From positions 13,950,001 through 14,014,000 of the forward strand of contig NC_092674.1 in NCBI RefSeq assembly GCF_964355755.1: a stretch of DNA of 64,000 bases, in the 5' to 3' direction. The DNA is from Antedon mediterranea (lineage: Eukaryota; Animalia; Echinodermata). The notes beneath the pieces were generated by a model, which was not told the DNA's origin, ran no database searches, and saw nothing but the letters and a program-made list of their open reading frames with translations. Made by a program: the position numbers and the translations under genes. This document shows, piece by piece, positions 6,843 through 59,155 of this stretch; the stretch's first letter is position 1, and every line of letters begins with the position of its first letter.

Positions 6843-9620
6843 CCGTGCAGTTCTCGACAATTTAGTTGCAACAAAAATGATCTATAATATGACCCGCGAT
6901 GTGGTTGCTTCATTTAGGTATGTTATTACTGGCACTCCCTTTAAATTGTAAAATTAAACACTTTTTAAATCACACTTAATTATATAGTAATATTATTATT
7001 AATGTAACACTTACATTGGCCTGAAGATCCAATTTAGCACCTTCCTTGAGCAAAATAGTGCAAACATCTGTGTGGCCGTTTTGTGCAGCCAAATTTAAAG
7101 GTGACCACCCATCCTGAAATATTACAAACATTATGTTATAGTAATTTTTCTCTAATCAAACTATTATAATATTGTCCTGATGTGATCAATTAAATATGAC
7201 GTTATAGATTTAAATAATGCTACATTATTAAATTAAATACGTATACATTTGTCTTTCTTGTATAATATTTTTTTATATAAGTGCTTTATAAATGTATAAA
7301 ACAAATAAGTGGGGTTTTTTTGCCTAAAAAGTAAACACTTCATCCGATAGTGAAGGGGCGTTTGAACTGGCAGTTACAGCTAAAATATCCAGACTTCAAA
7401 TTCTGTTCAGGTAACACATTTTGACTGATAAATTCTTACCATTCATGGTTTCATTTTACCGTTACTTGGAGGAGATATATGTATTTTTTAAATGTTTTAT
7501 AAAATCAAATACAAATCTCGATTTATATCCATTTATTGTATCATTTTGCATAAAATACAGTGTTGCTCTACACCACAATACAATGCAAAAACAGAAAACT
7601 AAAGAACCACGAAATATCATTTTCTAACATCCAGTGCCATAAAGGCATATGGTAACAATGATTACGGAATCTATTACGAGATGTGATGGACCTTTTCTTT
7701 GAACCTCAAAATAGTGCATTGGATATGTTGGGTCTTGCAAAATTGAAAGTGTTTCCTCAGTAAAGTCCCTTATAAAATGAATCAAATTGAGATCTGCTTA
7801 ATTATAAGTACTGTAGTCCTATACGTGAAGCATAACTAAAAATACGTTCCAGCTAATTCTTACATGTGGTCCCGGTAAACTATAAAACAATGAATAATTA
7901 AGAATACTCTCAATGACAGATTTATAACAAAAGACGCAGGCCTATGAGTTAACTCCAAAAGATTTGAGTCTACGCAAAAGTAAAGCCTATTTGATACTCT
8001 CAGTAATGAGGTCGTGCCATTTAAGATCACTAGTGATTTATTTGCAATCTCAGCTTCAGAGTGGGTACCGTACCGTAGTTCAATTTTTAAGTTATTTTCC
8101 TTTTTTTATGGGTTACTGTATGGGTTGAAAATACTGTATGGGTTGAAAAAGTCGTAAGAAATTAGTTTATTAGTATAGAGTACTGCAAACCATAATAGTA
8201 GGTAACATTTGTAATTGAGGGCGTTTTATTTAACACGACAAAGCATGCAGACGATTAAAAATGTACAGTATCATAATATAGTAGTATATTTTAAATGTTG
8301 GCATGACATAATACACATTGACAGTTCTTTCTAACAGAGTTTTTTCTCGGGTTACTCGGATGTTATACTTAATTCTTTTTTTATATATTGTAATGCGCCG
8401 TGTTCTTTACGGTATATCTTTACATCGATTGTATTTTATTTTTCAACAAGCCATGCGGAGGATTCATGCAATATCTCTTAGTATTAAAGGGTAACACCAC
8501 GGCTTTAAAATGTATATTGCTTATTATAAAATATAAACCTTTTAATCAACATTGGTAATAACTTTGCTTTATTTTAGACAGTACTCAGGCAAAAGCTAAG
8601 TAGCTTCTTTAAAAGACAATATTACAGTACGCGTGTGAAGTGAACTCATTCGCCTTAAAAATTCTAGTTTAAAAATATAATTAAACTCAACCTTTTAAAT
8701 GGCTGATGATTAGAGATGTGCGCGCATGCAAATTAGCAATATAAATTAATATTTATTTAGGCTAAAGCTAACATTATGTTTCCTATTCGAGAAACGTTGT
8801 TGTTATGGGAACACACTTCTAAGTTGTTGGTGTAACTTCACACTAACGATATATTGAAACATTGTATTAATTAGTCTCCTTTACATGAACCTTTGTCATG
8901 TGCGACGATTTGAAATTCAGATAGTTTTAGTATTGATATTATGTTACTGAGGTGTAGTAGTATGCTACATGCAATGTGGATTGTTGAACATTTTAATTTA
9001 TGATGATACAAAGTATATTATTATTGTAACCGAATTAGTCATGATATACGATGAATTTAAATCAGTTTTTGCATCATGTTATGAGGTACAGTAGTATTAT
9101 ATTATTATTGTAACCAAATTAAAATGTTTGTTGTTATAGAATAAAAATACTGGTACGTATTGGCCGACACTCCACACTAAACATAACTATGCATTTAATA
9201 CTAAACATTGTATTACATTGGCAAGTCAGAATGTTATAATGTACTTGGTATCGAAACTATACTAAATGACCAAAAGGTGACATACATTTTTGTCAAATCA
9301 TATCCTGTTTTGTATCGTTGGATAGATTTAAACTACGAAACAATAATATTGTTTGTACATTATACGTATGATGTAGTCATTATTTGTTTATCATTGAAAG
9401 TAATGGTAAATGTATAATTTGCATAGTGTCCCACATATTTTTAATTCGGTTCTAGTTCGCTATGTGTAAAAGTGAAGATCAAAATAATTAAAATGTTAGA
9501 CTTAATCGTGATCGTTTACCTATAATCATGAATATTATCTCAATGTTAATATTTAAAGTAATCCTTTCTTTATTTTATGTCATTTGACGCAAGCCTAAAT
9601 AATATGAAAGCAATCTTTAG
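6843..9620. repeat. Class-A ankyrin exon module (exon + flanking intron)
   Basis: Collinear with 53970-58490 and 58875-62230, and more distantly with 40060-42590. Confidence 0.85.
7015..7113 (-). CDS. Ankyrin-repeat exon E6: DGWSPLNLAAQNGHTDVCTILLKEGAKLDLQAN
   Basis: 99 bp, open, ATTTCAG| acceptor and |GTAAGT donor, phase 0-0, ankyrin consensus. Confidence 0.92.
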
Positions 9621-10399
9621 ATCTTGTAAAATCGAATGTGTTTTAAAGTATCTAATGATTCAAATTGAGATCTGCTTGAGACCTGCTCTGCTCGTTTGAG
9701 TTCAAACGTGTCCTTTTGTGCCATGTTTATACCCTTACCCTATATTGGTCGTGCCATTTAAGATCACTAGTGATTTATTTACAATCTTCAGATGAGTGGG
9801 TACCGTATTAATTTCATATTGTAGGTGATTTAACGTTATAAAATATCTTCATTGTTTTCAATTGTTTTCAATTGTTTTCACCTGCTTTGATAGAGACAAT
9901 ACTGTTAATAATTGTTTATTAGTAAACACATAGTGTACCCAAAACCAACCCAGTGTATTTGTGCACATAATAGTGTGTAACATTTGTAATTGAGATCGTT
10001 TTATTTGACACGACAAAGCATGTGAACTCCTGAAAACGTACAGAATCATAATAATGTAGTACATATTGTATTTTGACGTAATGATTGTTGTTGTTTTTTT
10101 AGACCACACTAAGTGGTTGGTGTAACTTCACAATAATGATATAATGAAACATCATAATGTTAGTCACCTTAATATGGTCATATGCCATATACGATGATTT
10201 AAAAATTCAGAGTTTTAATATTATAGTATTACAGTTGAACATTCGTGAGTGGTCACCTCCCGTAGTTTCAAAAGCCCGTTTGTTCTTCATCAAATTAGTG
10301 GACCTCCTGTAAGCAGCCATCTCATGTGTTTTTTTTCTCTTTTGTGAGGTTCACTCAACTTTACTTCATTTCAAAACATAAATAAACAATTTTATTATG

Positions 10400-11330
10400 T
10401 TTGTATATTATCTTTTTAAATATATACTATTTTCATTCATAGACATAAAGTTTCCTCTTACATCTAAAAAAAAAACTCTGCAAGTTATCATTTATACATT
10501 TACATTACATTTAAACTGAAAACAATATCAATGAATATGGAAAACCAAAAGCAACTCAATAACCGGTTGCTTGTAGAGTATATCATTTTCTATGCTTTTT
10601 TTTTTTACTCTTCTTTTTATTGTTTTCCCCTTTTTTTTATCTTTTTCTTTTTTATTTGCACTATTTACATTTTTGTACAAATTACTTTATTTACAGTAGG
10701 CTTAACCTTCAAAATAAAAATTAATAAAATACATTCATGGTATACTCTTGTGTAAGTATATTTTTAAACATTATCCATGAGTTTTTACAGACTGACTTAT
10801 TTAATTCTGAAAATATTTTTATTTTGTATATAGAATATAGAGCAATTGAGTATAACTTATTTTTTATGTTGCATTCAGACCCAAACATAAGTTTTTCAAA
10901 AGAACAGTTACTATTATCTAACTTTTTAAATATCTCATTGATTTTTTTCCATAATAAGACATTGCTTTTACATTGGAAAAACATGTGCTTTTCATCCTCA
11001 GTTACATCACATAACTCACATTTGTTTGTGTTCTTGATATTCCATTTATATAATTGTACATTTGTTGGTAAAATTCTAAGAAGCAATTTGTAATTTAGTG
11101 GTGCATATTTTTTGTTTTTCTCATTTTTTACTTTTCTTGACCAAATATCAAACCAGTTTGTCCTTTAAATTTCAATCTCTTTTTCCCATTTGGGAATAGT
11201 AATAGGAGCAACAAACATACCTTCTATAAAACTTGAATATATCTGTTTTGTTTTCATCTGAAATATCTTATTTATTTTATAATCATCTGAATTTAATTTA
11301 ACACTATCTCCATTATAATTTTTACGGAAA
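10400..11330 (-). mobile_element. 3' fragment of a Tx1/L1-clade LINE (zf-RVT region)
   Basis: ILPTNVQLYKW..CELCDVTEDEKHMFFQC zinc motif. Flanks align with uninterrupted module sequence near 42230-42350. Ends approximate. Confidence 0.75.
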
Positions 11331-11494
11331 ATTTGTTTACAACACATTAGATTGTTTGTATGGTAGATTACCTCCCTTAAGCGGCCACCCACAAAATTGG
11401 CTGCAGTCGCGTGCGCAAATTTTTCATATTTCTGTAAAGAACATTTCTGTGATTTTAGATGAGATGAGAAAACTACACAGATTTTGATTGACTG

Positions 11495-13305: not shown

Positions 13306-13333
13306 GGCGATACAGTAGGCCTAGGCCTACATG

Positions 13334-16300
13334 TCATAGCCGGGAGTGGTATTGGGGTTAAGCTCCCTTTACCTAAAAAATGCTCCCATACGGTGTGCGT
13401 CTCAAATAGCCTCTGACAACTAAAAGACCAACTCCTGGCCTGCACGAATGGCTTAGTTCTTTCTTTAAGCCTGGCGAAACCTGCTTCCTACTGACAGGAG
13501 AAGGGACGAAGGCGAGCCACTGGCGCCTCAAAACCAGAAGCTTACTTGGACAGGTGGAGTTCATCAGCCGTGACAGGCAGTTCACCTAGGAGAAGGAAAA
13601 CTCTGATTTTAAACCTCCGCTGCCTTGCGGCTATATCCATCCTGGAAAAGGCTTCAGGAGTAAACCTCAAGGACAAATCCGGAGTGAAGCCCCTAAGGCG
13701 GTTTGGAACATTGACTCAATCTCTTTCCGGCAGCTTCTGCAGCCAAACTGGTACCATACGTATTGCTCTGCTCTCCTATGGACTTTATCGGTAAAGGCCG
13801 AGAGGGGGATTCTGCTGACTGGGCATCGCAGGGTCCCCATATTTTTCTTCGCCCAGGCGTGCGCCATGGAGAGGTCACTTCAGTGCTGTTGTAAAAAACG
13901 GCTAAAATCAACACGGGAGACAGCAGTTTACGAGTGATAAGCCAAGACCAATTGGCGTAGGTCAAGGCGCTACGGGTTGTCTCCGACGGTGGGAGGGACC
14001 ATCGCAGTCCCACTGGTCAGCTATCGCCCGCCTCAAGCCGAGCAGCCCTCGGCCAGTAAGATGCTGACCCGCCACAGTCTGCCTGCTTCAATGGGTGCTT
14101 GGAGCTTAGGATTCTTCCGACAAGCGGACTGTAACTACTGCACCAGGCAAAAGATTAAAGAAAAGACTAAAGAATACTACCTTGCGATTTGCAAGCTGGA
14201 ATGTCAGGACCATGTGTCCTGGCTTTTCAAACGACCCACGAACGACCAATGACTTAAGAAAGACAGCTATCATCAACCGTGAGCTCAAGAGGCTCAACAT
14301 CGATATCGCTGCATTACAGGAGACAAGACTTCCCTCGGATGGCAGTATAAGAGAAAGGGACTACACGTTCTTTTGGCAGGGGTTGGAACCTGACCAACCA
14401 CGACTCCATGGAGTGGGGTTTGCTGTTAGAAACTCTCTTGTAGCATCAGTCGAACCACCATCCAAGGGCACCGCCCGAATCCTCTCACTCCGCCTATCAA
14501 CATCTTCGGGCACAGTAAACATCTTGAGCATCTATGCACCAACTCTTTGCTCAACACCCGAGTCTAAAGATGAGTTTTATGAAGAGCTGGACTCTGCCAT
14601 CAGAGGAATCACAGACACAGAACATCTGTATTTGCTTGGCGACTTCAACGCCCGTGTAGGATCTGACCATTATTCCTGGCCCAGGAGCATTGGACATTTT
14701 GGTGTAGGAAGACTAAATGAGAATGGCCAGAGGCTTCTGGAGCTCTGCAGTTATCATGACCTCTGCATTACCAACACATTCTTCTCCACCAAGCCTCAGC
14801 ACAAAGTGTCCTGGCGACATCCAAGATCTCACCACTGGCATCAACTAGATCTCGTCATCACTCGAAGATCTTACTTAAATTACGTAAACATCACTTGCAG
14901 TTACCATAGTGCATACTGCGATACTGATCACTCTATGGTGCGCACACAGTGTGTCTCAAACCAAAGCAAATTCATCGCTTCAGGCACATAGGATGCCCAC
15001 GCATCAACACAGCTAAGACCAATCTGCCAGACCTGTGCGCTCGTTTTGCCCAAACCATCGATAAAATGCTGAAAGACTGTCCAAAAGCCAACTCTGAAAT
15101 GAGATGGGCTCATATTCGTGATGCCATCTATACCTCTGCCAAAGACATCTTCGGCGTGAAAAAGAGGAAAACCCCTGATTGGTTTGAATCAGGAATTTCT
15201 GCGATGGAGCCAGCTTTAGAGGCAAAGCGTGCAGCGCTAATTGACTACAAAAGAGACCCTTCAGAAAGAACACTAGAGGCTCTTCGTAAAGCTAGAAATA
15301 ACTCTCAAAAAATAGCTCGACAGTGTGCCAACCAATACTGGTTGAACCTCTGTCAAGATATTCAACTTTCTGCTGATCATGGCAACACTGGCGCCATGTA
15401 CGCTGGTATAAAAAAGGCCTTTGGACCTAGTGCAACAAAGATCGCACCATTAAAGACCGCCTCTGGTACCATCATAACTGATCGTGGAAAGCAGATGGAG
15501 AGATGGGTAGATCATTACCAACAACTCTACTGGAGAGAAAACATTGTCACTGACTCAGCCATTGAGTGCATAGATTCTCTCCCCATAATGGAAGAGCTCG
15601 ACAATCCACCTACACTGGCGGAACTAAGCAAGGCCATTGATATCTTGGCTTGTGGTAAAGCCCCAGGAAAGGACGGTATCCCACCAGAGGTCCTCAAGGC
15701 TGGTAAACGCTCCACATTATTACTACAAAACCTACACGAGCTTCTGCTACAATGCTGGGAAGAAGGCTCAGTACCCCAGGATATGCGTGACGCAAACATC
15801 GTTACACTGTATAAGAACAAAGACGATCGCAGCGACTGCAACAACTATCGTGGAATATCCCTTCTTAGCATAGTGGGTAAAGTCTTCGCACGTGTTGTAC
15901 TAACTAGATTACAATCACTTGCAGAACGTGTCTATCCTGAAGCCCAGTGTGGCTTCAGAGCTGGAAGATCAACCATCGACATGATATTCTCAGTGAGACA
16001 ACTGCAAGAAAAATGCCGTGAGCAGAGGCAGCCCCTGTACATTGCCTTCATAGATCTAACGAAAGCCTTCGACCTTGTCAGTAGGAAAGGTCTCTTCTCC
16101 CTACTACAAAGGATCGGATGTCCTCCAAAGCTTCTGGGGATAATCACCTCCTTTCACAAAGACATGCACAGCGTTGTGCAGTATGATGGCTCATCTTCAG
16201 ATCCTTTTCCCATCAAGAGTGGAGTAAAGCAGGGGTGCGTTCTCGCGCCTACACTCTTCGGCATATTCTTTTCCCTGTTACTATCATATGCCTTTCGTCA

Positions 16301-17410
16301 GTCAAATGAAGGAGTCTACCTACATACTCGAAGTGACGGAAATCTCTTCAACCTTGCCCGCCTTCGCGCAAAGACCAAGGTGCGACGTCTACTTATTAGA
16401 GAGTTGCTCTTCGCTGATGACGCTGCCATCACAGCCCACAGTGTAGAAGCACTCCAGCGCCTCATTGACTGCTTCTCACATGCATGCGAGGAGTTTGGCC
16501 TTACCATCAGCCTTAAGAAAACGAACGTTCTAAGTCAAGACGCAGCCAATGCTCCTCCTAAGATCAAAATCGGCGATTATACTCTTGAGGTGGTGGAAAA
16601 GTTCATTTACCTTGGTTCCACTGTTTCCAGTAACCTCTCATTTGACGCCGAACTCAACATCAGGATTGGAAAAGCGACATCAGCCATGGCTCGCCTAACA
16701 GATAAGGTTTGGAAAAACCGCATGCTGACTATAAACACCAAGATGAAGATCTACCAGGCTTGTGTCCTAAGCACCTTATTGTACAGCAGTGAATCATGGT
16801 CTCTTTACACCCGCCAAGAGCGCAGATTGAGTTCATTTCATCTGCGCTGCCTGAGAAGGATACTCGGCATCAAATGGCAGGATCATGTCTCAAATAAAAC
16901 CGTTCTAACTCGGGCAAGTTTGCCCAGCATGTACTCACTACTTACCCAGAGACGCCTTCGATGGCTGGGCCATGGAAGGCGCATGGATGACGGAAGAATA
17001 CCAAAGGACTTACTCTATGGTGAGCTTGTCACTGGAACTAGACCTAAAGGAAGGCCCATGTTACGCTTTAAAGACGTATGCGAGCGTGATCTTAAGTCGG
17101 GCAACACAAACGTCACAAACTGGGAGGCTGTTGCCTCCGATCGCAGTATGTGGAGATCCACTATCAAGATGTGTGTCCAAACAAGCGAGAGTAGACGCGA
17201 CAAGAAACGGACGCTACTCAAGAAACGTAGAAAGGAGAGAGCATCCTCTGCTCCAACCGATCAGGAGCCAACGTACATCTGCCCAAAATGTGACAAATCA
17301 TGCCGCTCAAAAATTGGCCTTTTTAGTCACAGCAGGCGCTGTGACCCTGCACCGAATGACGGATAGAGGGCGCATACCTATTGTCTCTCGAGACAAACGG
17401 CTGCCAATTC
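13334..17410 (+). mobile_element. Full-length RTE-clade LINE
   Basis: 11-bp TSD AGGCCTACATG (13323-13333 / 17411-17421), long 5' UTR, APE + RT ORF, RTE-type 3' end. Confidence 0.95.
14182..17366 (+). pseudogene. RTE endonuclease-reverse transcriptase with one frameshift near 14948
   Basis: APE motifs SWNVRT, LQET, GDFNA, TDH. RT motifs FIDLTKAFD, GVKQGCVLAP, FADD. C-terminal CPKC..CRSKIGLFSH. Confidence 0.92.
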
Positions 17411-17838: not shown

Positions 17839-20197
17839 TTATCGTAGTAACATTTTTCTGTAATTGTAGTATTGATTTATTAAATTAATTCGCATCTCTA
17901 ACTTTGATTCAGAAATTGGCACAAAACTATGATGTGATCTCGTTCCAGCAATAGTTTTAGACAAAGCGTATCTTGTATCCAAGTCATACTTTTCTTTATT
18001 TAATTGAATTTGTTCATCTGTTACAAAGAAAAACTTTATTCCTTGAATATGGTCGCAAACCCATCTGTACATATCATCAGCTTTTAATATTTGGTTGGTC
18101 TCTGTCGCTTGCAAGCTTGCTCTTGCTACCAAACGCTTCGTGGTACCACCTATACCATCACAAGGGCTCTTCCCATGGCTTGTGGCAAAGAAATGCCATT
18201 CTGCATGCAAACCATGATCTTTTTTATGGAAACAAATATTTGTCCAATTTTTATAGTTCTTGTATTGGCTGGCTGCCCCATCGCTAAAATATACAATTTT
18301 CTTTATATGAGGCAAGACATCTTTTAAATGTGAAAGTAAAGTGGTAATGAAAGCATGTACAGTTGATGTTTCATGCTTCAATGAATCCGAGATGACGCAA
18401 GTACTCAGGGATTTTAATTCATCATTTTCTTTGTAATAGATTACAAATGGATGGAGGGTTGCTTGACTATTGTCCCAGTAAAACCCTTGTATGGCATCCT
18501 GAATTAAAAAACTATAATTTTCTGCAAAGTCTAACAAAGCAATGGCAGTGTCATCAGAAAGATCCTCCTTCAGTTTCCGAAGATAAGCAGATTGTGATTT
18601 TGTGATGTAATGATGTTGCCGAAGTCGGTCAAATGCATCAGCTACCTGCTCTATAAATTCAGGTAGTGGAAGTTGGAGCGTAGCAATAGTTGTTCTATCT
18701 GTATTTATCCATTGCTTAAATGTTATCGTTTCTTCGAAATCAATTTCATTTTCAGTAAATGTATTTGACAAATCCTCAACAAGAGCAGACTTTCCTGGAC
18801 ATTTTTCACACACTAGCATCATGCAATCTCTGTTGTCAACACTGCATACGATTTTTGACAGGAGATCTTGGTACTCTAATCGACCAGGAATTGCTGATAC
18901 TAAAAGTTTCACATTTTGATGAATTTGGCACACACATACAGAGTGCATACCTCTGCTATTTACCGATACACACCATTTTGGACGAAGGTCACAAAATTTT
19001 GAGAATCCAATTTTGTCATCTGGGTTTTTTATCTTATATAATTTATACAGTTCTTTTAAATTGATAAGAATCAAGCGTTTTTGCTTTTGCACTTTTACAT
19101 AATTGATTCTAACAGAAACAAATTCTTTTTGTCCTGGGCACATCCTTGAATACTCATCCGACTCATAAAACTCAACCACTCGCTGAACAACTTGTGGAGA
19201 AAGGACCTTTCCTTTTTTGGGTGCAGGTACCGCTAAGATCCCATTGGTCTTTTTTAGTTCCCTGGCGGTTCTAACTATGTAGTGAGACACTTGAAATTCC
19301 TGAACAGTCTTCTTGATGCTCCAACTTGGAGGAGCAAGAGTAAGTAGTATGATTTTTTCTTTTGTTGTTGTTGCTTTTGAACACTTCTCTTTTAGTAGGC
19401 CCACTAGTGTGTCCAAATCTTTGCATTTCTTACATGGCTTATCTTGATCAGATGAACTTAATTCTTCCTGAGGAATGTTAAGAACCTTGGAAACTTTAGC
19501 TTTGGATGCAGATTGAATATCACGCATCTTCCTTTTTCCATAGTCAACCTTCCCCTTTTCCCTAACACGCTTGAATGGTGAGCATCCAAGAGATGATACG
19601 CTAACATTGAGCAAGTCATGCTCATTGTCTGTGTCTACAAAGCTGTCGTCAGTTGTTGAATCTTCCTTACATTCTGATATCTTGATATTTCTGCATGTTG
19701 GGCATAGCTTCTGCCCAGGCTTCACATTAAGCAATTTTGCATCATTTTCTTCGATAACTCGTAGAGACTCTAATATAAAAATGAGATTGAAAATTAGACT
19801 ATTATTGTTAAACTATATTATGATAAAGTTTTAAGTCCTTTAAAAGCAGTGGTATATAATTTTAAAATACTGTACCAAAACTCAAACATTAAAAAAATCA
19901 ATAATAGAAATACTTACTTGTAATAGCTTTCTTGTGCCTTTTGAAAGGATCGCAGCATTGTCTTTGTAGACGTTCATAATATGATATGTACTTCTTCTCA
20001 TGATGATTACATATTGTGTTATCATCCGCAAATTCTACAGCAGTTCTCCACTCTAACAGCACCTTCTTCTCCTTTGACAAATCAGTAGCATTTATCAGAG
20101 CATGAGAACCTCTAAATATTGTATTCAAATGGCAGTCTTCATTTAAAGCTAAACCAATGCTACATGGATTTAAATTCTCACCAGTGTTGGATTCCAT
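17839..20197 (-). CDS. Sola2-like DDD transposase, two exons (20197-19918 and 19769-17839), ~736 aa
   Basis: GT-AG phase-1 intron joins the 99-aa and 631-aa ORFs in frame (..KAIT-K-SLRVIEENDAKLLNVK..). Motifs DFAENY, SDGAASQYKN, WHFFATSHGKSPCDGIGG. Confidence 0.8.
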
Positions 20198-21233
20198 TAT
20201 TGTACCACAATTAAAAAATTACTCTGTTCTGTTGTAGATGGTTGTACTTTGTAGTGTGCAATTAAGAATACTGTGATAATGTACATTCCTCTTACTCTAA
20301 GATTATCAAATTACTTAATCTCCATGGAAGGTCATGATAATATGTAGATGAGCTGATGAATTTATTACCCTGATAAGGAAGGTACAGTAATTTATGATGG
20401 AGATATATAGAATACCTTAAATACCTTTTCTCCACCCAAAGCCACAAAGGGGATGGAGTGTTCTCCGGGTCACACCACACCCATGTATGTGATTTGTGAA
20501 TCATGTGGCTAAATACCATACTTTCAAAAAGCTGCCACACCATGAAGAAGATGAGACACCAAAACAGAATTTAGTCCAGAAGTACATTAGACTTGCATTA
20601 CCAGATGGTGTAAGTTTCATGTCGGTGGGTATATGTTGCCAAGGTCAAAGGTCACTCCGAAAATCTTAGTTTTTTGCCTATTTTCTGTCTGTAACCAACT
20701 TTGGAGCTATGTCAAACATAAATTAAAAGGGTAAATTGTCTATCCTTGCTGTAAGATAACCACATGTGGCTCTACAATACATATGTGCAATATAAAGCTT
20801 TTCTGATTGTTCTTACTTACCATTAAGGGGGTCTAAAAATGAAAATTTATTTGACCGGTACAATAAATTGGGGTTTTCCATAACATATAAATAAAAAAGT
20901 GTATAAGATACAGTTATTTTGAGGCCAGATTTGCATTATATGGTGGGAATTGACCCTAGATACCAATTTTCAGCTTTGTATCTTGATTTTAAAGTGTTAT
21001 AAATCACATTACAAAACGCAAAATATTCAATTACTCAAATTATGTGAATTCTGACGATCATAGTACCCCGTCTTCAATAGGCTATATTTTCAAAACGACT
21101 TTGATTTAAGTGCTAAAACTTTGAATGTGTTCATTATATATATTGAGGTACCTTTAAAAAAAATTTCAGCCAAATCCATGACGTGACCCGTACCAATTTT
21201 TAGAAAATTTGATGATTTGACATGGAATGACCC
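17885..21233 (-). mobile_element. Sola2-like DNA transposon missing one end
   Basis: Terminus GGGTCATTCCATGTCAAA (minus strand, from 21233). No matching second terminus; the sequence runs into a repeat homologous to 12260-12480. Confidence 0.65.
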
Positions 21234-22959: not shown

Positions 22960-24150
22960 GTCGCGTATTTGTCAGCCGATTGCAAATTCTCGCCAAAACG
23001 CAACGAACAAAATCAAATGAAAACGGGATAAAAACTGGATAAAAATATACCAAAACACACTGTACATATCCATTTAAAAAGTACTCATGAAGTCGTTTGG
23101 TGATCAATATTGCACATTTAAACATCCGTCAATTGAGTAATGATGCCTCACACAGTACCGTTTTACGGTCTCCGGAAAATCAAAGAATTTTCGATTCTAC
23201 ACTTTTTGTTATACTGCACATTTTAAATGTATAGTAACCAATACGTTCAATGGAGTCAACTAACTGTAAACATCAACAACGGTGTGTTTCTCACAACAAA
23301 ACCTACGTTTTGCATGGGATTGACAACGACGTTTTTTTAAGAGTGCTATTTTTATGCATATTTTAGGTATGTTATTACCGTCGGTTCGCCCTTTCAACTG
23401 AAAATTCATTTTTTTAAATCACACTGAATTATATAGCACCCCTTATTAATAATGTTTGTAACACTTACATTTACCTGAAGATCCAATTTAGAACCTGCCT
23501 TGAGCAAAATACTGCAAACATCTGTGTGGCCATTACATGCAGCAAAATGCAAAGGTGTCCAACCATCCTGAAATATTACAAATAATATTATTATGTTATA
23601 GTATTTTTCACTTTACAACAAACTATTTAATATTGTACTAAAATAAATTAGATGGGATCATGTATAATACTACTTCAATTAAATAATTAAATTTATATAT
23701 TTAAAGTATGATAAATTGTAAAACAATTGCTAACTATAGTTTATTAATATTTGATATTTTCGTAGTAAAGTGCATTACAAACGCATTTGCTTGCATGGTA
23801 TTCTTGTGGATGGTACAGTACGTTTTAAACACTTAATTACGAGATTAACACGGAAACGCTTTTATATCCGATAAGACGTATTTTATATACAATCTTCCAT
23901 TTTAAGATTGTATTGACTTCTGCATTACAAGGTAGTTATTTTATTGTAAGATAGTAAAACGTTAAACGTTGTATAAAGTACATATTTTGTTTCATTACTA
24001 CAATACTTATCAATATAAGTATATGCGAGTTACTTTTTGGTAACTTAAAACCAATTGCCATAAACAGGTTGTTAAATGATACTGGTATGTACTTCTAATT
24101 TATAAAAAAAAAATATTTTAGTTATAAACTGTTAATATTAACTGCCATCT
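22960..24150. repeat. Class-B ankyrin exon module
   Basis: Collinear with 46020-47460, which carries an extra L2 insert. Confidence 0.85.
23469..23567 (-). CDS. Ankyrin-repeat exon E5: DGWTPLHFAACNGHTDVCSILLKAGSKLDLQVN
   Basis: 99 bp, open, canonical AG / GTAAGT sites, phase 0-0. Confidence 0.92.
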
Positions 24151-25614: not shown

Positions 25615-26262
25615 TAATCCCCTAGGGCCTAGGCTAGGCCTTGGCCTATCCGGGCCTAGGCATATCTAATCGAGTATGAGATAGTACTACTGCAGTACCA
25701 TTTATTACAGGCCTATAATAAGAATACATTTAAAAAAACAATATAAATTATACAAAATCAAGCAAACATTTTTTTATAAAAGTTACATAATAATATTAAT
25801 TGCTTATGGGCTTTATATATCTTATCTTGTTGCAAATGTTCATTTTCGCGACGTTTCTACCGACAAATAGAACAGAAGAATGTCGGTTTCTTTGAAATGC
25901 TGATTGTTTATTGCACGTCCATAAATCAAAGTATTATATTTTGATATGAGTTGTAAACTCCCTGATTAGAACATTATGATATTGAAACTACTGTGCATTT
26001 GTAAAGTATGTACAACATCGTATTCGTAAAGTGGGCTAAAACACAGTAGTAAATACATACAAATGTTATTGTCCGGCTTTATTTCACTATACGGTTATAC
26101 ACATTATGTCATAACTCTTGTCGCTCATTGGTTGCTTGCGGATAAAAACGTCGTAACGCAACAATTGTTAGGTCATCGGTTTCATTAAAATCAGCCTTTC
26201 TTACGACAAATCGACGTAGTCGCAACAAAAGTGATGTTCTTACGTCGAAAGGAAACCAGGCT
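25615..26262 (-). mobile_element. Partial inverted copy of the Harbinger-type element at 35883-37230
   Basis: Reverse-complement similarity, including one TIR. Confidence 0.8.
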
Positions 26263-27333
26263 TAACATAAAAAAAAACTTTATTAACCACTAACGTAACC
26301 AAATTTAACCACTAGCGTAACAACAGTAGAAATGTTAAGACATTTTTGACAATTTTTGTTTGAAAGTTAGAAATCTAGGACTCACATCCAGTAAAATTTG
26401 TCTGTACCTCAACTATCAATTGTTGGTTAAACAATGGTGTTAAATTTAATTAGCTTAAAACATTTGTTTTCTGTCCTTCAAAATTTTATACTTGAAATGT
26501 AAATTCCAATCTTACAAATTCAGCCTATTTTTACTATTTTGAATCGTATGTTTGTCTGTGTGAGTGCACTTTCGGCTATCAATACTGTAACCGTAAGACA
26601 CACTAATTTCCGTATGAAAAAGCCGTGGCATTTCCATACTTGTCTGTCTGTTTTTCTAACAATACTCTTACTTTCAATGACGTAGGTAGACAAGTGTATG
26701 CTTTGATTATGCTTTTCTGTCAATTTATTTATATTCAACAATACATTTTATATTAAATTACTAGTCTAAAGGCTAAAAATGAGAAAATAACAAAAGGACA
26801 GATAATCATAGACACGAAAGAGGTTCAATATCAATAAATTTGAGGAAATAAATCATGTTGAAAGAAAAAATGAGAATTTACTGATTGACGGACACTAAGA
26901 CAATTTTTATAGGAAAATCAGGCTAAACTGTTTTATATATGTCAAAATATTGCTACTACTTATTGCGTTTGAGGTTAATGTTACATTAGTTGTTGATGTT
27001 TGTTACGTTAGTGGTTAATGTTACATTAGTGATTGATTGTTACGTTAGTGGGTGATGCAATACCAAGATGGTTAAAGTTTGCACAACACACAACCACACA
27101 GTTTTATTTGTCTTTAGTGTATATATGAATTTGTGTGCAAACAGTAAAATAGAATAATGTCTAATGGAGTCCATCACAAAATAACAAGTTAATACAGATG
27201 ATAACGAATGATTACGAACACAGAAACCTCAAAAACAGCGACGACGAGAGACCCGAAGCACAGGGTCTCTGTTTTCGAGATCTGTTTAAAACAGAGACCT
27301 CAACACAATCTTCTCAATATTAGGCTATAATAG

Positions 27334-35882: not shown

Positions 35883-37230
35883 AGGCTGGTTTCCTGTCGA
35901 CGTAAGAACATCACTTTTGTTGCGACTACGTCGATTTGTCGTAAGAAATGCGTATTTTACAGGAAACCGATTACGATCGAAAATTTACAAAATCGACGCA
36001 ACGTAAGAAAAATGGTAACGACAAACGATTTTACAGGAAACCGATGACCTAACAATTGTTGCGTTACGACGTTTTCTTCCGATTTTATAGGAAACCGGGA
36101 TTTTTTATCTTACGCTTGAATGAACGCCCTTGCGTCACGTTTCTTACGTCTCTTACGAAAGTTGACTTGAAGTTAACTTTCGCAAGAGACGTAAGCGCAA
36201 TCGTAACAAGCAACCAATGAGCGACAAGAGTTATGACGTAATGTGTATGTCCTTATAGTGAAATAAAGCCGGACAATAACATTTGTATGTAATTACTACT
36301 ATAATTTTAGCCCACTTTACGATGTTGTACATACTTTACAAATGCACAGTAGTTTCTATAATATAGGCCTAATAATGTTCTAATCCGGGAGTTTACAACT
36401 CATCAAAATCTAATACTCTTATTTATGGACGTGCAATAAACAATCAGCATCGGTAGAAACGTCTCGAAAATGAACATTTGCAACAAGATAAGATATAGAA
36501 AGCCCCTTTTTAAGCAATATAATATTATTATGTAACTTTAAAAAAAAAATTGTTTGCTTGATTTTGTATAATTTATATTGTTTTGTTAAATTTATTCTTA
36601 TTATAGGCCTGTAAATAATGGGTATCTTACTGCGGTAGTACTATCTCATGCTCGATTAGATATGCTTATAGGCCCATAGGCCAATGCTTAGCCTAGGGCC
36701 TAGGTAGGTCTAATAATAATAGGCTAGGGGCCTAGGCTAGTTTGATTATTTGGTCAAATCAATTCCTATTAGTACAGTATTAATTAAGTATTTTACTAAT
36801 ACTAGGGCCTAGCCTATCTACTGAAAATAATATGTTGGTGTGCTGCACTGACACTGCTGCTGAGTAGCTACAGACAGGTACAATAACAACATTCAACATT
36901 TCGCGCGAAAAATGATAAAACCCGCTCTAAAAAGAAACACCAATCAGAGATGTTGTTTCAAATACGTCATAAATCCGACCGACGTAAGAAAAAAATTTAA
37001 ACTTTCGTAACAACACTAAAATCGACGTAAGCATACGACGTGTGTTTCACAGCCAAAATTTCAACTTTCGGGAGCAGCATAACTACAGATGTTTCTCTGC
37101 GGCCCGACACGATCTTGACTAAGGTCAACGACGTCAAGTTTTTCTCAACTTTCGTAAGAGACGTAAGAAACGTATGAAACGCAAGAATCGTTGCAAAATT
37201 CGACTTCTTACGTCGACAGGAAACCAGCCT
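35883..37230. mobile_element. Non-autonomous PIF/Harbinger element
   Basis: Perfect TIR AGGCTGGTTTCCTGTCGACGTAAGAA and 3-bp TSD TTA. Confidence 0.88.
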
Positions 37231-41130: not shown

Positions 41131-41279
41131 GTAGGTCTTTTTGATCTATAATAATGACCCGCAATGTTAATTGGTTCATTTAGGTATGTTATTACCGGCA
41201 CGCCATTTAAATTAAAAACTTTTTAAAAATCAAACTGAATTATGTAGCACCCCTTATAATTAATGTTTGTAAAACTTAC

Positions 41280-41378
41280 ATTGTCTGGAAGATCCAATTT
41301 AGCACCTGCCTTGAGCAAAATAGTGCAAACATATGTGTGGCCGTAATATTCAGCCAAAAGTAAAGGTGTCGATCCATC
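41280..41378 (-). CDS. Ankyrin-repeat exon E4: DGSTPLLLAEYYGHTYVCTILLKAGAKLDLPDN
   Basis: 99 bp, open, CTTTCAG| acceptor and |GTAAGT donor, phase 0-0. Confidence 0.88.
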
Positions 41379-44300: not shown

Positions 44301-46521
44301 TTATCACTTTTTGATTAACACACTTTGGAAATAACTTGAACTGATAGCTACAACTTAATCACTCTCTGTGTACATATAGTGTAAATACATACCGTTGAGA
44401 GAATTTAACAACAGTCTGTGTCATTGATATAAAGACTGCTACATAAGTTAGATGTTAACATTAATTCCTATTTTTTTATGAACGCAAACATTGTAACGAA
44501 CAATGAATCCTAATTATAGTTTTCCAATAAATGCTACATTGAACTCGTCAAGCCCGAACCAGAATTTATTTTCATTTGTTCGCAACTGAAGAAAATACAT
44601 TTAAGCCTATAGCCTAGATTTCAAAAGTTAATCCTTATTTATAACTTTCACTGCTGGTCTAAAAAGACGAACCATACGAACCCATAGGCTAGGGGCTTAC
44701 CGTCACCGTGACAATTATGGTTATCCGCGTTAACGAACACAGTGTACCAAACATATTGAAAACATGTTTTTAGTGTTCTGAATTGTGTCTTATAGTGCAT
44801 TGTATGTTACATTTTTCTTGATAGCATAATATTCAATTTGTTGGTGGATTGTACTTTTACGAGTCCAGTTAAGCATAATTGTGGCATTTATTGTCCAATT
44901 CCGAGCCTTTTATCGTCTGACTTGATTTGTAATACTGGTGTCCTTTTTCGTGACATGATCTCAAGCTAGTAGATCTCATTATCCAACTACTTATTTTCGG
45001 CCAATTGTTCTCTTCACCACAAAATCACATCCCTCTCCACTTCAAAATCCTGTCTACTGTACATTCTTGTTGTATTTTGACACCGTGATACCTTTATAAC
45101 ATTCAAGATGTCTGTGTCTCAACAACCTACGCCAACATCGGCAAATGGGGCATCACCTGTTTTGACTCTACTGCTATCCTCTGTTCTATTCTTATATAAG
45201 CGTTTACTAAGTTTATCCAGTAAGTTTAACTTAGCTTTCTTGGCATTACTTCTATTACTTATGAACGCAATTCAAATGAATATGATGACAATTTGTTTTT
45301 TTAGTGGGCTGAAATATTAACTTAAATTGACGTAAACGCTCATATACTGTCAGTATTTCTTTTATTTAAACCATTTCCCATTTGTACAGAGAACTTGAAA
45401 AGAAAACAACTTTTTTCATTTATCGCCAAACGCGAGTGTTGCCACACGAAAATAACACAGTCAATATCATCGTACTCTAGAACTTAGTGGATTTTATATG
45501 TTTAATGACAGGGACACGATAATGACGCAACAATTACTCAGTCAATATCATCGTACTTGAGGAAATATATACGATTTACGATCCTCGCAGAAGTATACTC
45601 ATGTGATGCAGTTTCAGCTAATCACGTTCACGTATTTACATATAACATTTAATAAAAAAATATTTTTTCAAGTTCAATTAGTTCCCCTTAATTTATAGTC
45701 CTTTAAATCTTTCTAATAATATTATTATTTTTTCCATCTTTTCTGAAAATTGATTACACCACATTCAATTGGGTTGATGTAGCCTACTTATTTGTCCATA
45801 ACATTGAACTGTTACATTCTATCACTTACACTATTAAGATTACACACATGTTCATGTGCGCCATAATATTGCTCAATATTCTATACCACAAATGATTGTG
45901 CAAGTACGCGTATGTATTGATTCAACATTACTTTATTTGGGGTTGGTACAGTATATTCATGTGAAGTATATCAATATGGTCAACATTCGGGACACCAAAG
46001 AGTTCAGGAGTTTACCGTGCTTGGCGTGTTTGTCAGCCGATTGCATATTCCTGCCAAAACGCAACGAACACACTCAAATGAAAACGAGATAAAAATATAC
46101 CAAAACACACTGTACATATCTATAATAAAAAGTATGGATGGAGTCGTTTAAGTGATACATATTGCACTTAGATGTTAAACAGATCACCAATTAAGTAACG
46201 ATTCCTCACACAGTACCGTTTTACGGCCTTTATAAAATCAAGGCATTATCGGTTCTACACCTTTGGTTATACTACACAGTTGTAATGTATAGTAACCAGT
46301 CCGTTCAATGGAGTCAGCTAACAGTGTAAATATCAACGATCGGTGTGTTTCTAACAACAAAGGCTAAGTTTTTCATGGGATTTACAACGACGTCTTAAGT
46401 GCTAGGCATATTTTAGGTATGTTATTACCGGTTCGCGCTTTAAATTTGAAAAATTAAATCATTTGTTTTAATCACACTGAATTATATAGCACCCCTTATT
46501 AACAATGTTTGTAAAACTTAC

Positions 46522-46620
46522 ATTGGTTGTAAGATCCAAATTAGCACCTGCCTTGAGCAAAATAGTGCAAACATCTGTGTGGCCATTACTTGCAGCAGAA
46601 TGCAAAGGTGTCCATCCGTC
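46522..46620 (-). CDS. Ankyrin-repeat exon E3: DGWTPLHSAASNGHTDVCTILLKAGANLDLTTN
   Basis: 99 bp, open, canonical splice sites, phase 0-0. Confidence 0.92.
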
Positions 46621-46857
46621 CTGAAATATTACAAACATTATGTTATAGTATTTTTCACTTCACATCAAACTATCTAATATTGCAATAAAATCAATTAGAT
46701 GTGATCATGTTTAATACAAATTTAATTAAATTTATATTATAATTTAAAGTATGTGTAATCAGTGCTACTAAGCGCCTTTGATGATTACATTGTTTACTTA
46801 ATTATGGCAACGCAAACACAATATAAGTATATTAAAGTTACTTTTTGAAACTTAAAA

Positions 46858-47583: not shown

Positions 47584-49588
47584 TACCCAAAAAGAAAATT
47601 AGAATATTTAATAATAATAATAAGCCTTGGCTCACAAAAGATGTAAGAAAGGAATTACTTAAGAAATATATTGCATCCAAAAACAAATGCAACGAGATGG
47701 AAAAGAAAAAGATTCAAAAATGTGTAAATAAGAAAATCAAAGCATGTAAATAAGAATATGGAGAAAAAATTGAGAACAAATTCAAGTGCCGGGACACCCG
47801 TCAGGCCTGGAATGGAGTTAGGAAAATTACAGGTATGGGGAAGAAAAATAATGAAATTGAACAAAGTTTTAAACCAAATGATTTTAATATTTTTTATTCT
47901 AGATTTGGTGAAATAAATTTTAAATGTGAAATGACTGCATCTGCTGAAGGGTTTAAAAATGAAATGTATGATAAAAGTGCAATAAAAATTGATGTAGATG
48001 ATGTTAAGAAATATATGGAAAGGGTAAATGTTATTAAAGCAAAGGGTCCGGACGGTGTATCAGGGCGTTTGATTAGATCATGTGCCTCTCAGCTTTCACC
48101 AATAATAAGCCAGCTTTTCCAGTGTTCACTGAACACGGGGGTGGTACCTGATCTATGGAAGGTCTCTGAGATTATACCTGTTCCGAAAATGTGTAACCCT
48201 AAAATCATTAACGACTTCAGACCAGTGGCATTATCATCTATTCTAATGAAGATTCTAATGAAGATCCTTGAGAAAATTGTTAGAAGTCAACTAATGTCTG
48301 AAATGTAGTGATTTTATGGATAATAACCAATTTGCATATCAATGTAATAGATGATGCTATTATAACCTTGTTAGACCTGGTGGTTTCACATTTAGATAAG
48401 AAGGGGACCTATGCTCGATCGAGGGCTATTCATAGACTTTTCATCTGCATTCAATTTGATGCAGCCTCATATTTTAATGAATAAAATGACTGAATGGAAG
48501 GTTAATCCTTACCTTGCTCTATGGGTTGGTGATTTTCTTACAAATCGGCAACAGTATGTTAAAGTTGGTAAATCTATCTCAGAGCTGAGATTAGAAGGAC
48601 CAACACTGGTGCACCCCAGGGGTGTTGTCTGTCACCAAGTTTATTTACAATATATACTAGTGAATGTCGATCTTCATGTAGCATTGTGTCATATAATCAA
48701 ATACGCAGATGACATGGTACTGATTGGTCTATTGAAAAATGCTGACGATCATGTGTATAAGGCTGAATATGTTAAAATAATGTCATGGTGTAATGACAAT
48801 TACCTTAAGATTAATTTTAATAAAACTAAAGAAATTATATGGGATTTTAGAAAAAAGAAAAATGAAAAAAGTTATCTGATAGTTAATTATCAGACAATTG
48901 AACGTGTTCATGAAACCAAATATCTTGGTACACATATTGATGATCAACTTAGTTTTGAAAAAAATACGGCCGAGATAATTAAGAAAGGTCACCAAAGGTT
49001 ATATTTCCTAAGAAAGCTAAATAAATGTAATGTTAGCTGTGGTACTCTAAAATTATTCTATGAAACAGTTATTCAATCAGTACTAGTTATCTCTTTTATT
49101 GCTTGGTTCGGTAATTTAAATGAAACACACAAGAAAGGTCTCATTATAATTACTAAGATAGCATCAAATATAATTGGTTGTACGGTTAATGATTTAAAAT
49201 ATCTTTATGAAAAACAGGTCCTAAGTAAATTAAGTAAAATTTTAGAAGGTAAGAAACATCTATTACATATGAGATTTTTTAAAAACAAGTCAGGCCGGTT
49301 ACGGGCTCCTAGAGCTGATACGTCAAGAAACCGACTGTCTTTTGTACGAAATTCAACTCATATTTTTAACTCAAAGATTGTTAGATCATAATAGCGCACA
49401 TGCAATATATATTTTAAAGTTTTACTGTTGATGGATGTTTTAATTAATGTTTTTAAATTGTAAATGTGTTCTATGTATAGTAATTATGAATGTTTTACCA
49501 TATTTTTCTGTCGAGGAAAACAATTTTTCCATGTACAATTTAGTATATATGGAACGAATAAAGATTTGATTTGTTTTGATTTGATGTG
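47584..49588 (+). mobile_element. 5'-truncated Rex1/Babar LINE, frameshifted RT
   Basis: KAKGPDGV, FRPVAL, FIDFSSAFN, KYADD, QRLYFLRKL; GATTT-repeat tail; 5-bp duplication ATCAT. Confidence 0.88.
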
Positions 49589-53632: not shown

Positions 53633-54145
53633 TATCTACAATAAACACTATACGCCTAAAACGCTATTAATCATCTAAGACACTTAGGTTAGTGAGTACG
53701 TTTAGTTTTACGAATATCAAAAGCATAGTAACCGACCGAAATTGTCCAGGCCAGAATGTCCTTTTAAAACTGTTTACGACCCGAGACATTATCATTCCGA
53801 GAACCATCGTCTACACTTCTTCAGTAATTATTATTAATATTTATAAAGATTAAACAAGTTATTACAAAGTGTGACACCAGTTGTTACAAAACCTTGGTTA
53901 ATCTGACTTTCAAATTTCAAGATTAACCTTGACGAGGCAGCGGTGTTCCGAACCATGTGAGGGGTACAACCGTGCAGTTCTCGACAATTTAGTTGCAACA
54001 AAAATGATCTGTAATATGACCCGCGATGTGGTTGCTTCATTTAGGTATGTTATTACTGGCACACCCTTTAAATTGTAAAATTAAACACTTTTTAAATCAC
54101 ACTTAATTATATAGTAATATTATTATTAATGTGTGTAACACTTAC

Positions 54146-54244
54146 TTTGGCCTGAAGATCCAATTTAGCACCTTCCTTGAGTAAAATAGTGCAAACACCT
54201 GTGTGGCCGTTTTGTGCAGCCAAATGTAAAGGTGACCACCCATC
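54146..54244 (-). CDS. Ankyrin-repeat exon E2: DGWSPLHLAAQNGHTGVCTILLKEGAKLDLQAK
   Basis: 99 bp, open, canonical splice sites, phase 0-0. Confidence 0.92.
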
Positions 54245-55138: not shown

Positions 55139-55167
55139 ACCGTTACTTGGAGGGGATATGTTTTTAC

Positions 55168-56870
55168 GGTTCTAGGACACCTACCCCCTAGACAGTTACC
55201 CCCCGGATGTTTACCACCCGGACAACTACCCCCTTAGGACAACTACCCCCCGGACAACTACCCCCCGGACAACTACCCCCTTAGGACAATTACCCCCTTA
55301 GGATAACAACCCCCCGGACAACTACCCCCCGGACAACCACCCCCTTAGGACAACTACCCCCTTAGGATAACTACCCCCCGGTCAACTACCCCCCGGTCAA
55401 CTACCCCCCGGTCAACTACCCCCCGGTCAACTACCCCCCCCCCCAATCCAAAAGTAGACAAATATATAGGACCGGTTTCTGTAAAAATGAAATCATCTGT
55501 TTTTAACGGGTGTTTCGAAACTAGAGACCGGAGACCAGAGACCTGACACGAGACCCAATACGAAAAGGGAGATCTATATTTGGGTCTCCCTTTTCGTATA
55601 TTAGGGTCTCCCTTTTCGTATAGTGTGGTCTCTCTTTTCGTATAGTGGGGTCTCCCTTTTCTTATAGTGGGTCTCCCTTTTCGTATATTTAGGTCTCCCA
55701 TTTCGTATATTTGGGTCTCCCTTTTCGTATATTTGGTCTCCATTTTCGTATATTTAGGTCTCCCTTTTCGTATATTAGGGTCTCCCTTTTCGTATAGTGG
55801 GGTCTCCCTTTTCGTATAGTGGGGTCTCCCTTTTCGTACGTGGGTCTCCCTTTTCGTATATTTAGGTCTCCCTTTTCGTATTGGGTCTCGGGTCTCTGGT
55901 CTCTGGTCTCGGGTCTCTAGTTTCGAAACACCCGTTTTTAACCGATTATTCTGTTTAACAGCACGCTAGACCCTAGATGTGCTAGATTTAAAGTACCGTA
56001 TTTATTGAAAAAACGGCCTGGGCTGTTTATTGTTTATGTGGTTTTTAGGTGGACATTTATTGGAAGAAAGTTGTTTATTCAATGGGAGGGGGTATAATCT
56101 AATGGAAATAGACGCCGATTATTCCATATGATGTTTCATGGGAGTGACATGGTCACCGTTTATTTGAGGGGAATTTATTTAAAGATCGACGTTTATTCGG
56201 TGAGTGAACATTGAGGTCAAATATCAAAAGTGATATTATTCTTCAAGTTTACAAAAATACATATATGACAAATTTGAGACAAAAATTAATTCTTTTAAGA
56301 CCAGTGGTTATCGAAGCATTGTCCTGACGCAAAAATTATTATTATTATTAGCGAACCCAGTCTTTACAGTAAATACATGGAGTACTATATAATACGTTCG
56401 ACTATCCTATGATCATGTGTGACAATCTTCAGTTTATACCACCAGGCTATATTTATGTTCAATCTTTTACTTTTGTTTACAATAATGAATAGTAATTCGT
56501 CAAAGTAACGAATTAAAATATAGTTATTAATTAATAGTTGCAGAGTCAGGTTGTTGAATGGTCTGGGTGGTTAGGGTGTTCTAAAGGGATAGTTTTCTGG
56601 GTGGTAATTGTCCGGGGGGTAATTGTCCGGGAGGTAATTGTCCGGGGGGTAATTGTTCCTAGGGGGTAATTGTCCGGGGGGTAGTTGTCCAGGGGGTAGT
56701 TGTCCTAAGGGGGTTGTTGTCCTAAGGGGGTAGTTGTCCGGGGGGTATTTGTCCGGGGGGTAGTTGTCCTAAAGGGGTAGTTGTCCTAAGGGGGTAGTGG
56801 TCCAGGTGGTGGTTGTCCGGGGGGTAGTTGTCCGGGGGGTAAATGTCCAGGGGGTGAATATCCGGATACG
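55168..56870. mobile_element. MITE with GGACAACTACCCCC-repeat arms (MULE- or hAT-like)
   Basis: Inverted tandem arrays at 55170-55440 and 56590-56870; 8-bp TSD GTTTTTAC. Confidence 0.75.
55508..55933. mobile_element. Nested MULE-like MITE
   Basis: TIR GGGTGTTTCGAAACTAGAGACC, 9-bp TSD GTTTTTAAC, internal ~22-23-bp GGGTCTCCCTTTTCGTATA tandem array. Confidence 0.85.
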
Positions 56871-57420: not shown

Positions 57421-57492
57421 GGTTTCGTAGTGTAGTGGTTGTCAAGTCTGCTTAACACGCAGAAGGTCCCGGTTCGAGCCCTGGCGAAATCT
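57421..57492 (+). pseudogene. tRNA-Val(AAC)-like, probably a pseudogene
   Basis: Acceptor GGTTTCG/CGAAATC; anticodon arm TCTGC-TTAACAC-GCAGA; mismatches in D and T stems; downstream T-run. Confidence 0.72.
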
Positions 57493-58489: not shown

Positions 58490-58640
58490 TTATGAATATA
58501 CATTGCTGAACCACCACTCATTCGTCCAAGACGGGAATCATTTATTAAGTTGTAATTTTCAAGATCTATTATATTCGGATTATTGTCGTCAAACCATGTC
58601 TCTGACATTACAATTACTGTAAATGTATGTTTTAATGACG
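58490..58640 (-). pseudogene. LINE apurinic endonuclease fragment
   Basis: FTVIVMSETWF..R..GGSAMYI motif, at the junction of two class-A modules. Confidence 0.7.
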
Positions 58641-59056
58641 TTATTATTACAGTTGTAGACTATGTATAAATATTATAATGTACCGCGATGGTAAGCCGAC
58701 TTGCAAAAAAATTAATAATATTACAAGTAATATGTATTATTAATTTATAAAGATTAAACAAGTTATTACAAAGTGTGACATCAGTTGTTCCAAAACCTTG
58801 ATTAATCTGACTTTACAATGTCAAGATTAACCTTGACGAGGCAGCGGTGTTCCGAACCATGTGAGGGGTACAACCGTGCAGTTCTCAACAATTTAGTCAT
58901 CCTCGCAAAAAAAAATGATCTGTAATATGACCCGCGATGTTGTTGCTTCATTTAGGTATGTTATTACTGGCACGCCCTTTAAATTGTAAAATTAAACACT
59001 CTTTTAATCACACTTAATTATTTAGTAATATTATTATTAATTTTTGTAACACTTAC

Positions 59057-59155
59057 TTTGCCATAAAGATCCAATTTAGCACCTGCCTTGAGCAAAATAG
59101 TGCAAACATCTGTGTGGCCGTTTTCTGCAGCCACATATAAAGGTGACACTCCATC
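59057..59155 (-). CDS. Ankyrin-repeat exon E1: DGVSPLYVAAENGHTDVCTILLKAGAKLDLYGK
   Basis: 99 bp, open, canonical splice sites, phase 0-0; lies within ORF 59018-59230. Confidence 0.92.

Follow-up and report, generated by a model that had tools for sequence, protein, structure and literature searches.

Single-repeat ankyrin exons with an excess of change at binding-face codons in the crinoid Antedon mediterranea

Introduction

Receptor repertoires based on splicing are established mainly in arthropods (Dscam) and have been proposed in brown algae. Here we describe six exons, each encoding a single ankyrin repeat, in a 64,000-nucleotide (nt) stretch of the genome of the crinoid Antedon mediterranea (NC_092674.1, positions 13,950,001 to 14,014,000; hereafter the window, whose own numbering is used throughout). 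The exons combine a conserved scaffold with an excess of change at codons of the ankyrin binding face, and repeats of the same family are carried by two predicted Antedon proteins, P0121 and P0122.

The closest described systems include the single-repeat exon arrays of brown-algal LRR-ROCO genes and NB-ARC-TPR genes (PMC3341825, PMC11378527). The crinoid locus shares with them one repeat per exon, frame-preserving cassettes and positive selection on the binding face, and in both cases an immune role is at the stage of a proposal. Isoforms with different repeat sets are a brown-algal trait, whose counterpart here consists of two predicted isoforms that differ at one exon. In contrast to the algal arrays, the repeats are ankyrin rather than LRR or TPR, the exons are 99 nt long in phase 0 rather than 72 nt in phase 2, the organism is an animal, the introns span 5–18 kb, and neither inactivated nor opposite-strand copies were found in 64 kb. 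The brown-algal ROC-COR or NB-ARC domain was not found in the 29 open reading frames (ORFs) of the window or in P0121 and P0122.

A second parallel is provided by the fungal HIC NLRs (HNWD proteins with WD40 repeats and HIC NACHT-ANK proteins), in which repeats are 80–100% identical and diversifying selection acts on a few hypervariable sites (PMC13449251). This combination is common to both systems, and ankyrin types are included in the fungal one. At the crinoid locus, unlike in HIC NLRs, each repeat has its own exon, so that splicing can vary the array; the Antedon models carry no NACHT, other ATPase or N-terminal effector, and no signal of repeat exchange was found among the six copies. 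The array may work like the brown-algal and fungal HIC arrays, and we class it with neither, because searches did not reveal their signalling domains and the window has no dead or inverted exons.

Among echinoderm systems, the sea-urchin SpTransformer (Sp185/333) likewise gives diverse modular products, which are tied there to immunity (PMC8634487). Its sequence is unrelated to that of the crinoid exons. SpTransformer is a multigene family and is not known as a set of single-repeat exons. A layout with one repeat per exon also occurs in ordinary ankyrin genes, for which literature searches returned no report. No crinoid gene of the present design was described in literature titles and abstract openings, a scope that leaves out most subscription journals.

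Results

Six intact ankyrin exons in one orientation

The exons are numbered in transcription order and are also referred to by their first base (59155 to 7113).

59057..59155, minus strand: ankyrin exon 1; flank type A; AG/GT ends, open frame
54146..54244, minus strand: ankyrin exon 2; type A; nearest copy at 7113, with 2.6% mismatch across 671 aligned nt
46522..46620, minus strand: ankyrin exon 3; type B; nearest copy the exon at 23567
41280..41378, minus strand: ankyrin exon 4; distal flanks akin to type A, about 17–19% mismatch
23469..23567, minus strand: ankyrin exon 5; type B; intron read-through tail matches Antedon isoform X1
7015..7113, minus strand: ankyrin exon 6; type A

The original prediction, made from the nucleotide sequence, of six open 99-bp phase-0 exons across 52 kb was borne out in full, with all six on the minus strand. 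Each is 99 bp long, in phase 0 and open, is preceded by TTTCAG and followed by GTAAGT, and passes the Pfam Ank (PF00023) cut-off of 21.1 bits with 28.5–44.2 bits. An nhmmer search over the 64-kb window returned the six exons at E 1e-27 or better and the next match at E 5.3; no further, broken or inverted exon copies were found in the window on either strand by nhmmer, tblastn or hmmsearch. If joined in order, the exons would be separated by introns of 4812, 7525, 5143, 17712 and 16355 nt. Their pairwise identity, taken from segment identities, is about 80–96%, and no cap or constant-repeat exon is among the six. Three other places were considered and rejected: a seventh exon near 31995-31950, a stretch directly beyond a long interspersed nuclear element (LINE) fragment, where the ORF at 31885-32091 has no Pfam match; a candidate near 61553, where the ORF at 61485-61643 has no Pfam match; and a candidate near 61675, whose frame lay outside the Pfam scan and which was rejected on its weak score with the six-exon profile (E 0.14–1.9 for the three).

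The residue sets listed in the original prediction proved exact: V/W/S at codon 3, Y/H/L/N at codon 7, V/L/S/F at codon 8, E/Q/S/Y/C at codon 11, Y/Q/T/P at codon 31 and G/A/T/D/V at codon 32. Codons 4, 10, 12 and 33, absent from that list, vary too. Codons 13–30 had been described as nearly invariant with a single synonymous change; the single synonymous change stood (codon 21), whereas the invariance did not, the amino acid being invariant at 13 of the 18 codons and six nonsynonymous alleles falling on the other five (16 D/G/Y, 19 T/S, 24 A/E, 26 A/S and 27 K/N).

Excess change at the binding face and a conserved scaffold

Neutral exons were simulated on branch lengths obtained from flanking intron columns, either 165 or, without splice signals and the intron motif described below, 107, so that expected numbers of steps come as pairs, one per intron calibration. 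In the designed ankyrin library ANK-N5C, positions 2, 3, 5, 10, 13 and 33 are randomised, counted such that Asp is residue 1 and Gly residue 4 (PMC4308713); these positions equal exon codons 33, 1, 3, 8, 11 and 31. At these six codons 21 steps were counted against 7.1 or 9.5 expected, a number reached in 0 of 3000 runs under either calibration, and without codon 31 there were still 14 steps against 5.8 or 7.8 (P 0.0003 and 0.012). The position set of the original designed ankyrin repeat protein (DARPin) library gave 20 steps against 7.1 or 9.6 expected. Codons 13–30 took 7 steps against 21.8 or 29.3 expected under neutrality. Codon model M2a was preferred over M1a (p 0.002 with F1x4, 0.0005 with F3x4), and its estimate of omega at codons 11, 31 and 32 was about 10. 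These data indicate purifying selection on the scaffold and excess change at codons 3, 7, 8, 11, 31 and 32, and the site-wise rates above neutral that had been expected are seen both as the intron-calibrated excess and as the M2a class.

The proposed mapping of the variable codons to the binding face held as well, with five of the six randomised ANK-N5C positions varying among the six exons. A fixed scaffold and variable positions 2, 5, 10, 13 and 33 (exon codons 33, 3, 8, 11 and 31) are common to exons and library (PMC4308713). Unlike designed libraries, the exons are natural, and position 1, a fixed Asp there, equals codon 32, which is among the most variable here, as is codon 7 (position 9).

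Over all 33 codons, pN (0.149) and pS (0.153) give a ratio of about 1. The excess at the binding face was measured against intron rates and not against exon dS, persists when splice signals are left out of the calibration, and concerns positions that had been selected in advance, on the basis of a published library (PMC4308713). These points argue against a non-adaptive origin, in which recent duplicates would have a constrained or gene-converted core and repeat ends that are relaxed or mutation-prone. Such an origin would fit the near equality of overall pN and pS, the several synonymous changes within codons 1–12, and the frozen third positions of codons 13–30 (2 steps against 7.1–9.5, P 0.017–0.003), which point to a nucleotide-level process lowering dS; we nevertheless regard it as very unlikely. 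The equal overall values hide two opposite signals, a frozen scaffold and fast binding-face codons. Gene conversion of the core and a splicing element are candidates for the frozen third positions. In variant rows from a second organism, met in the sequencing runs below, core synonymous sites (codons 13–30) are also almost frozen. Gap intervals number 11 distinct ones in the ~193 nt of shared flank versus 0 in the exons, and under neutrality at the intron rate all six exons stayed stop-free in 2–6% of runs (P 0.02–0.06).

Exons were copied together with their flanks

The unit common to the six copies measures ~300 nt, made up of ~87 nt upstream, the exon and ~106 nt downstream. Its downstream end is an invariant 17-nt motif, which lies 85–94 nt past every donor and at which the similarity between types A and B stops.

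58951..59243, minus strand: example of the shared ~300-nt unit
58951-58967, 54040-54056, 46412-46428, 41179-41195, 23362-23378 and 6913-6929, minus strand: six copies of the 17-nt intron motif

Within a type, similarity extends further: between the exons at 59155 and 7113 it recurs in pieces as far as 3 kb upstream, and those at 46620 and 23567 have, with their flanks, 772 aligned nt in common. The tree (59155,(54244,7113),((46620,23567),41378)) was among the best for the upstream flank, for codons 1–12 and for the downstream flank. With 40 informative sites, a PHI-like test, of low power with six sequences, detected no mosaic recombination among the six copies (p 0.72–0.90). Because flanks and exon have the same best tree and mosaicism was not seen, exon and flanks were copied as a whole; the duplication of cassettes that had been predicted is thus evident from the segment and flank alignments. 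The exons at 54244 and 7113, with 2.6% mismatch, are 47 kb apart. Since nearest relatives are not adjacent, the order of the array would have been built by non-adjacent copying or by repeated gain and loss. Support for shuffling, also predicted, comes from array order; it was not detected as mosaicism within the units.

In-frame head-to-tail splicing of the exon family in an RNA-like run

Twelve sequencing runs contain part of the locus, none of them recorded as RNA, and five were examined (X1, X5, X6, X7 and X11). Over 46440-46680 the depth of run X5 peaks on the exon. The RNA label of X5 is a guess; reads of X5 are also present in each of the 30 bins of a stretch that is mostly intron, which makes the run mixed, so that its RNA nature rests on exact exon-exon joints. 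Such joints occur in three of three X5 rows, which pass in frame from position 46522, the last base of the exon, to the start of a family exon, the missing codons being supplied by exactly 36, 23 or 1 letters; read by hand, the rows gave KGSSPLYLAAQE, KGYTPLCV, and a start with N or K. Rows with family-exon joints numbered 0 in the DNA-like runs X1, X6 and X7, and at 46531 the loose ends of X6 and X7 continue past the exon into the donor site. A contig of X5 that is spliced on its 5′ side shows 4 differences from the exon region at 46620 over 46507-46619 and continues 15 nt into the downstream intron. These data indicate that the exon family is spliced head to tail and in frame in an RNA-like run, in line with the expectation that it is transcribed.

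At 46458-46502, the intron past the donor is covered more deeply in X5 than the intron before the acceptor (about 170–480 versus 125–165), and this asymmetry is opposite to the one in the three DNA-like runs. Nascent RNA would be compatible with it, as would read-through ends of the kind found in isoform X1 (described below), although contigs cannot show level. One loose end reads LDLQGN and then DGA. A loose-end consensus in X5 was considered as a C-terminal cap exon and rejected: it is a 5-contig consensus with an agreement of 0.71, it resembles a family exon start, and its single match in the window, with 2 mismatches, is at chance level.

The distinct contigs over the exon region were many (173, 88, 89 and 97), and one contig of run X1 had a depth of 5291 against 175–480 for most unique-looking pieces. 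Among the variant rows shown (40 of 62), 29 lie in the exon, 24 of them in codons 1–12 and 31–32; the 5 rows in core codons are all nonsynonymous. The exon family is present in a second organism (B) too.

Predicted Antedon proteins with the same repeat family

A query with one exon found 2 proteins among 2 candidates of 53–170 residues, both predicted from Antedon mediterranea: P0121 (XP_071950137/8, isoform X1) and P0122 (XP_071950139, isoform X2). Each opens with an N-terminal part of 44 residues, after which come a divergent ankyrin repeat and a single family repeat. The two are identical for 110 residues, past which they use different family repeats, that is, different third exons after the same second exon. 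The terminus of isoform X1 is an intron read-through, and all 20 residues of this tail recur when the window exon at 23567 is read on into its intron. The three annotated family repeats each differ from every exon of the window (best 28/33), so the pool of exons would be larger than six. The N-terminal part and the divergent repeat have no match in the 64-kb window, and a query with the N-terminal part found only P0121 and P0122 among 5 candidates of 110–2000 residues. Ankyrin was the only Pfam family on the two models, with repeats directly after the 44 N-terminal residues, and inspection of P0121 by eye gave no sign of a signal-peptide-like start. Many DARPin chains in the PDB are matched by P0121, which is to be expected of any consensus-like ankyrin. 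Family repeats number three in the public models, to which the window adds six; the locus suggests that automatic annotation may hide such single-repeat exon arrays.

In a profile search for longer relatives, the best 120 of 5820 matches were generic ankyrins, with a top 33-residue identity of 21/33. A family repeat amounts to 57–69 bits, so that a protein with five or more would exceed the 254-bit cut above which matches were listed; none was among the best 120 of 5820. An Atlas search for relatives returned generic ankyrins only, and exact-pattern scans of JGI metagenome contigs gave 0 matches.

The predicted skipping of cassettes draws its support from the divergence of the two predicted RefSeq isoforms after residue 110. 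The same two isoforms, with their different third exons after a common second exon, and the lack of a protein with five or more family repeats among the best profile matches argue against a constitutive array, in which every cassette would be spliced in sequence to give a single long ankyrin-repeat protein, or a few paralogues. Selection would be the same, and diversity would then arise in the germ line only, through duplication, loss and point mutation, following the pattern of fungal HIC NLRs. This explanation would suit the observation that all six exons are intact, that their splice sites are strong and canonical and that dead copies are lacking; constitutive splicing would account for head-to-tail joints just as well, and annotation often fails over introns of 4.8–17.7 kb between near-identical exons, which would explain the short models. 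We consider it unlikely, yet deserving of serious attention.

Comparison with mutually exclusive exon clusters

Tandem near-identical exons, similar flanking introns and a conserved intron motif are features in common with arthropod Dscam1 clusters, and tandem duplication of exon plus intron is the proposed origin of selector arrays (PMC6071210). A Dscam1-type arrangement would comprise two or more mutually exclusive clusters here, and the 17-nt motif would act in it as the selector, pairing with a docking site that lies beyond the window. The motif gave 6 exact matches in the window versus 0.09 expected from shuffles; an invariant run of at least 17 columns arose in 4.4% of flank-column permutations, which makes it marginal (P 0.044). 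Folding of the motif back on the donor was not supported, since its pairing with donors or upstream flanks (−5.1 to −9.6 kcal/mol) was no better than background (means −5.2 and −8.8) and local folds around it were unremarkable (z 0.1–1.4). Unlike in Dscam1, family exons splice together, as seen in 3/3 X5 joints and in the two Antedon models; a single-slot cluster is thereby excluded, and several separate clusters are left as the form to be considered. Cytoplasmic-type ankyrin repeats stand here in place of Ig domains, and no docking partner was found in the window. Such clusters would account for a motif that is identical in six of six units at a fixed range past the donors and bounds the similarity of types A and B, as well as for Antedon isoforms that differ at one slot; on balance we think them improbable.

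Surrounding sequence

The window is AT-rich (about 35% GC) and rich in mobile-element remains.

14110-17366, plus strand: long LINE, two overlapping frames of which carry an endonuclease (PF03372) and a reverse transcriptase (PF00078)
17839-19812 and 19898-20218, minus strand: 657-aa open frame, no Pfam family above cut-off
27353-30881, 4706-6840, 55173-56855, 640-3406, and 25621-26265 with 35880-36704: fold-back elements with long inverted arms
57421-57492 (plus strand) and 30026-30091 (minus strand): Rfam tRNA matches, 44 and 34 bits
32092-32940, 47754-49391, 60381-61220 and 10721-11164: retroelement fragments with reverse-transcriptase-related Pfam matches
62400-62891: retroelement fragment without Pfam match, protease-region-like by eye

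The LINE lies antisense within the last intron and is probably a recent insertion, because its GC content is higher than that of its surroundings. The 657-aa frame at 17839-19812 is presumably DNA transposase-like, judged by eye from its motif type. The arms of the fold-back elements are built of 154-, 41/18- or 15-nt subrepeats, and one arm pair spans about 11 kb. The two tRNA matches are possibly heads of short interspersed nuclear elements.

Discussion

We propose, with a probability of about 0.5, that the exons belong to one gene that combines a fixed N-terminal part with a varying subset of selected ankyrin cassettes and encodes small intracellular binders, probably directed against foreign proteins. 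The six exons are intact single-repeat cassettes in which change at the binding-face codons outpaces that in the flanking introns, and cassettes were copied with their flanks, sometimes to distant places in the array. The gene would splice its N-terminal part to a changing subset by exon skipping, and the products would form a family of small binding proteins, putatively cytoplasmic, whose most likely targets are fast-changing foreign proteins, giving them a possible immune role. In a bolder version, which we find possible though doubtful, this crinoid gene would consist of a fixed N-terminal cap, a first repeat and dozens of selected single-repeat exons, few of which enter each mRNA by regulated splicing, so that a combinatorial repertoire of intracellular binders would arise on the scale of Dscam.

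Several points weigh against the proposal of a single gene with a varying cassette subset. The isoform difference stems from automatic annotation on near-identical exons and may reflect misplaced short reads, and both Antedon models end oddly, isoform X1 into an intron. Adjacent pairs of window exons are matched by none of the X5 joints, which, with their upstream partner unassigned, give no evidence of one exon with several partners. The contig data hint at roughly 10–40 copies, depth not being a copy number, and the profile search scored the 7989 candidates that share most words. Concerning selection, codon 31 alone passes Bonferroni correction in single-codon tests (0.016), and codons 11 (0.09 or 0.33) and 32 (0.28 or 0.87) fail; the codon-model test was run with our own code on six short sequences, in which multi-letter mutations can inflate omega; and the overall ratio of pN to pS is about 1. 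The absence of a recombination signal, at low power, counts on the same side. Death, NACHT, ROC-COR and TIR domains were found neither in the 29 window ORFs nor in the two Antedon models, and the terms receptor and immune used in the original prediction gained support from none of our results.

To our knowledge, crinoid immunity is almost unstudied. If the bolder version is true, the locus would be nature's counterpart of a DARPin library, found in a deuterostome that lacks adaptive immunity. Evolution would there vary, one repeat per exon, the ankyrin positions that engineers randomise, and codons 7 and 32, diversified in nature, lie outside the designed sets. The locus thereby raises the questions of whether echinoderms form binding repertoires by exon choice and of which scaffold positions are diversified in nature.

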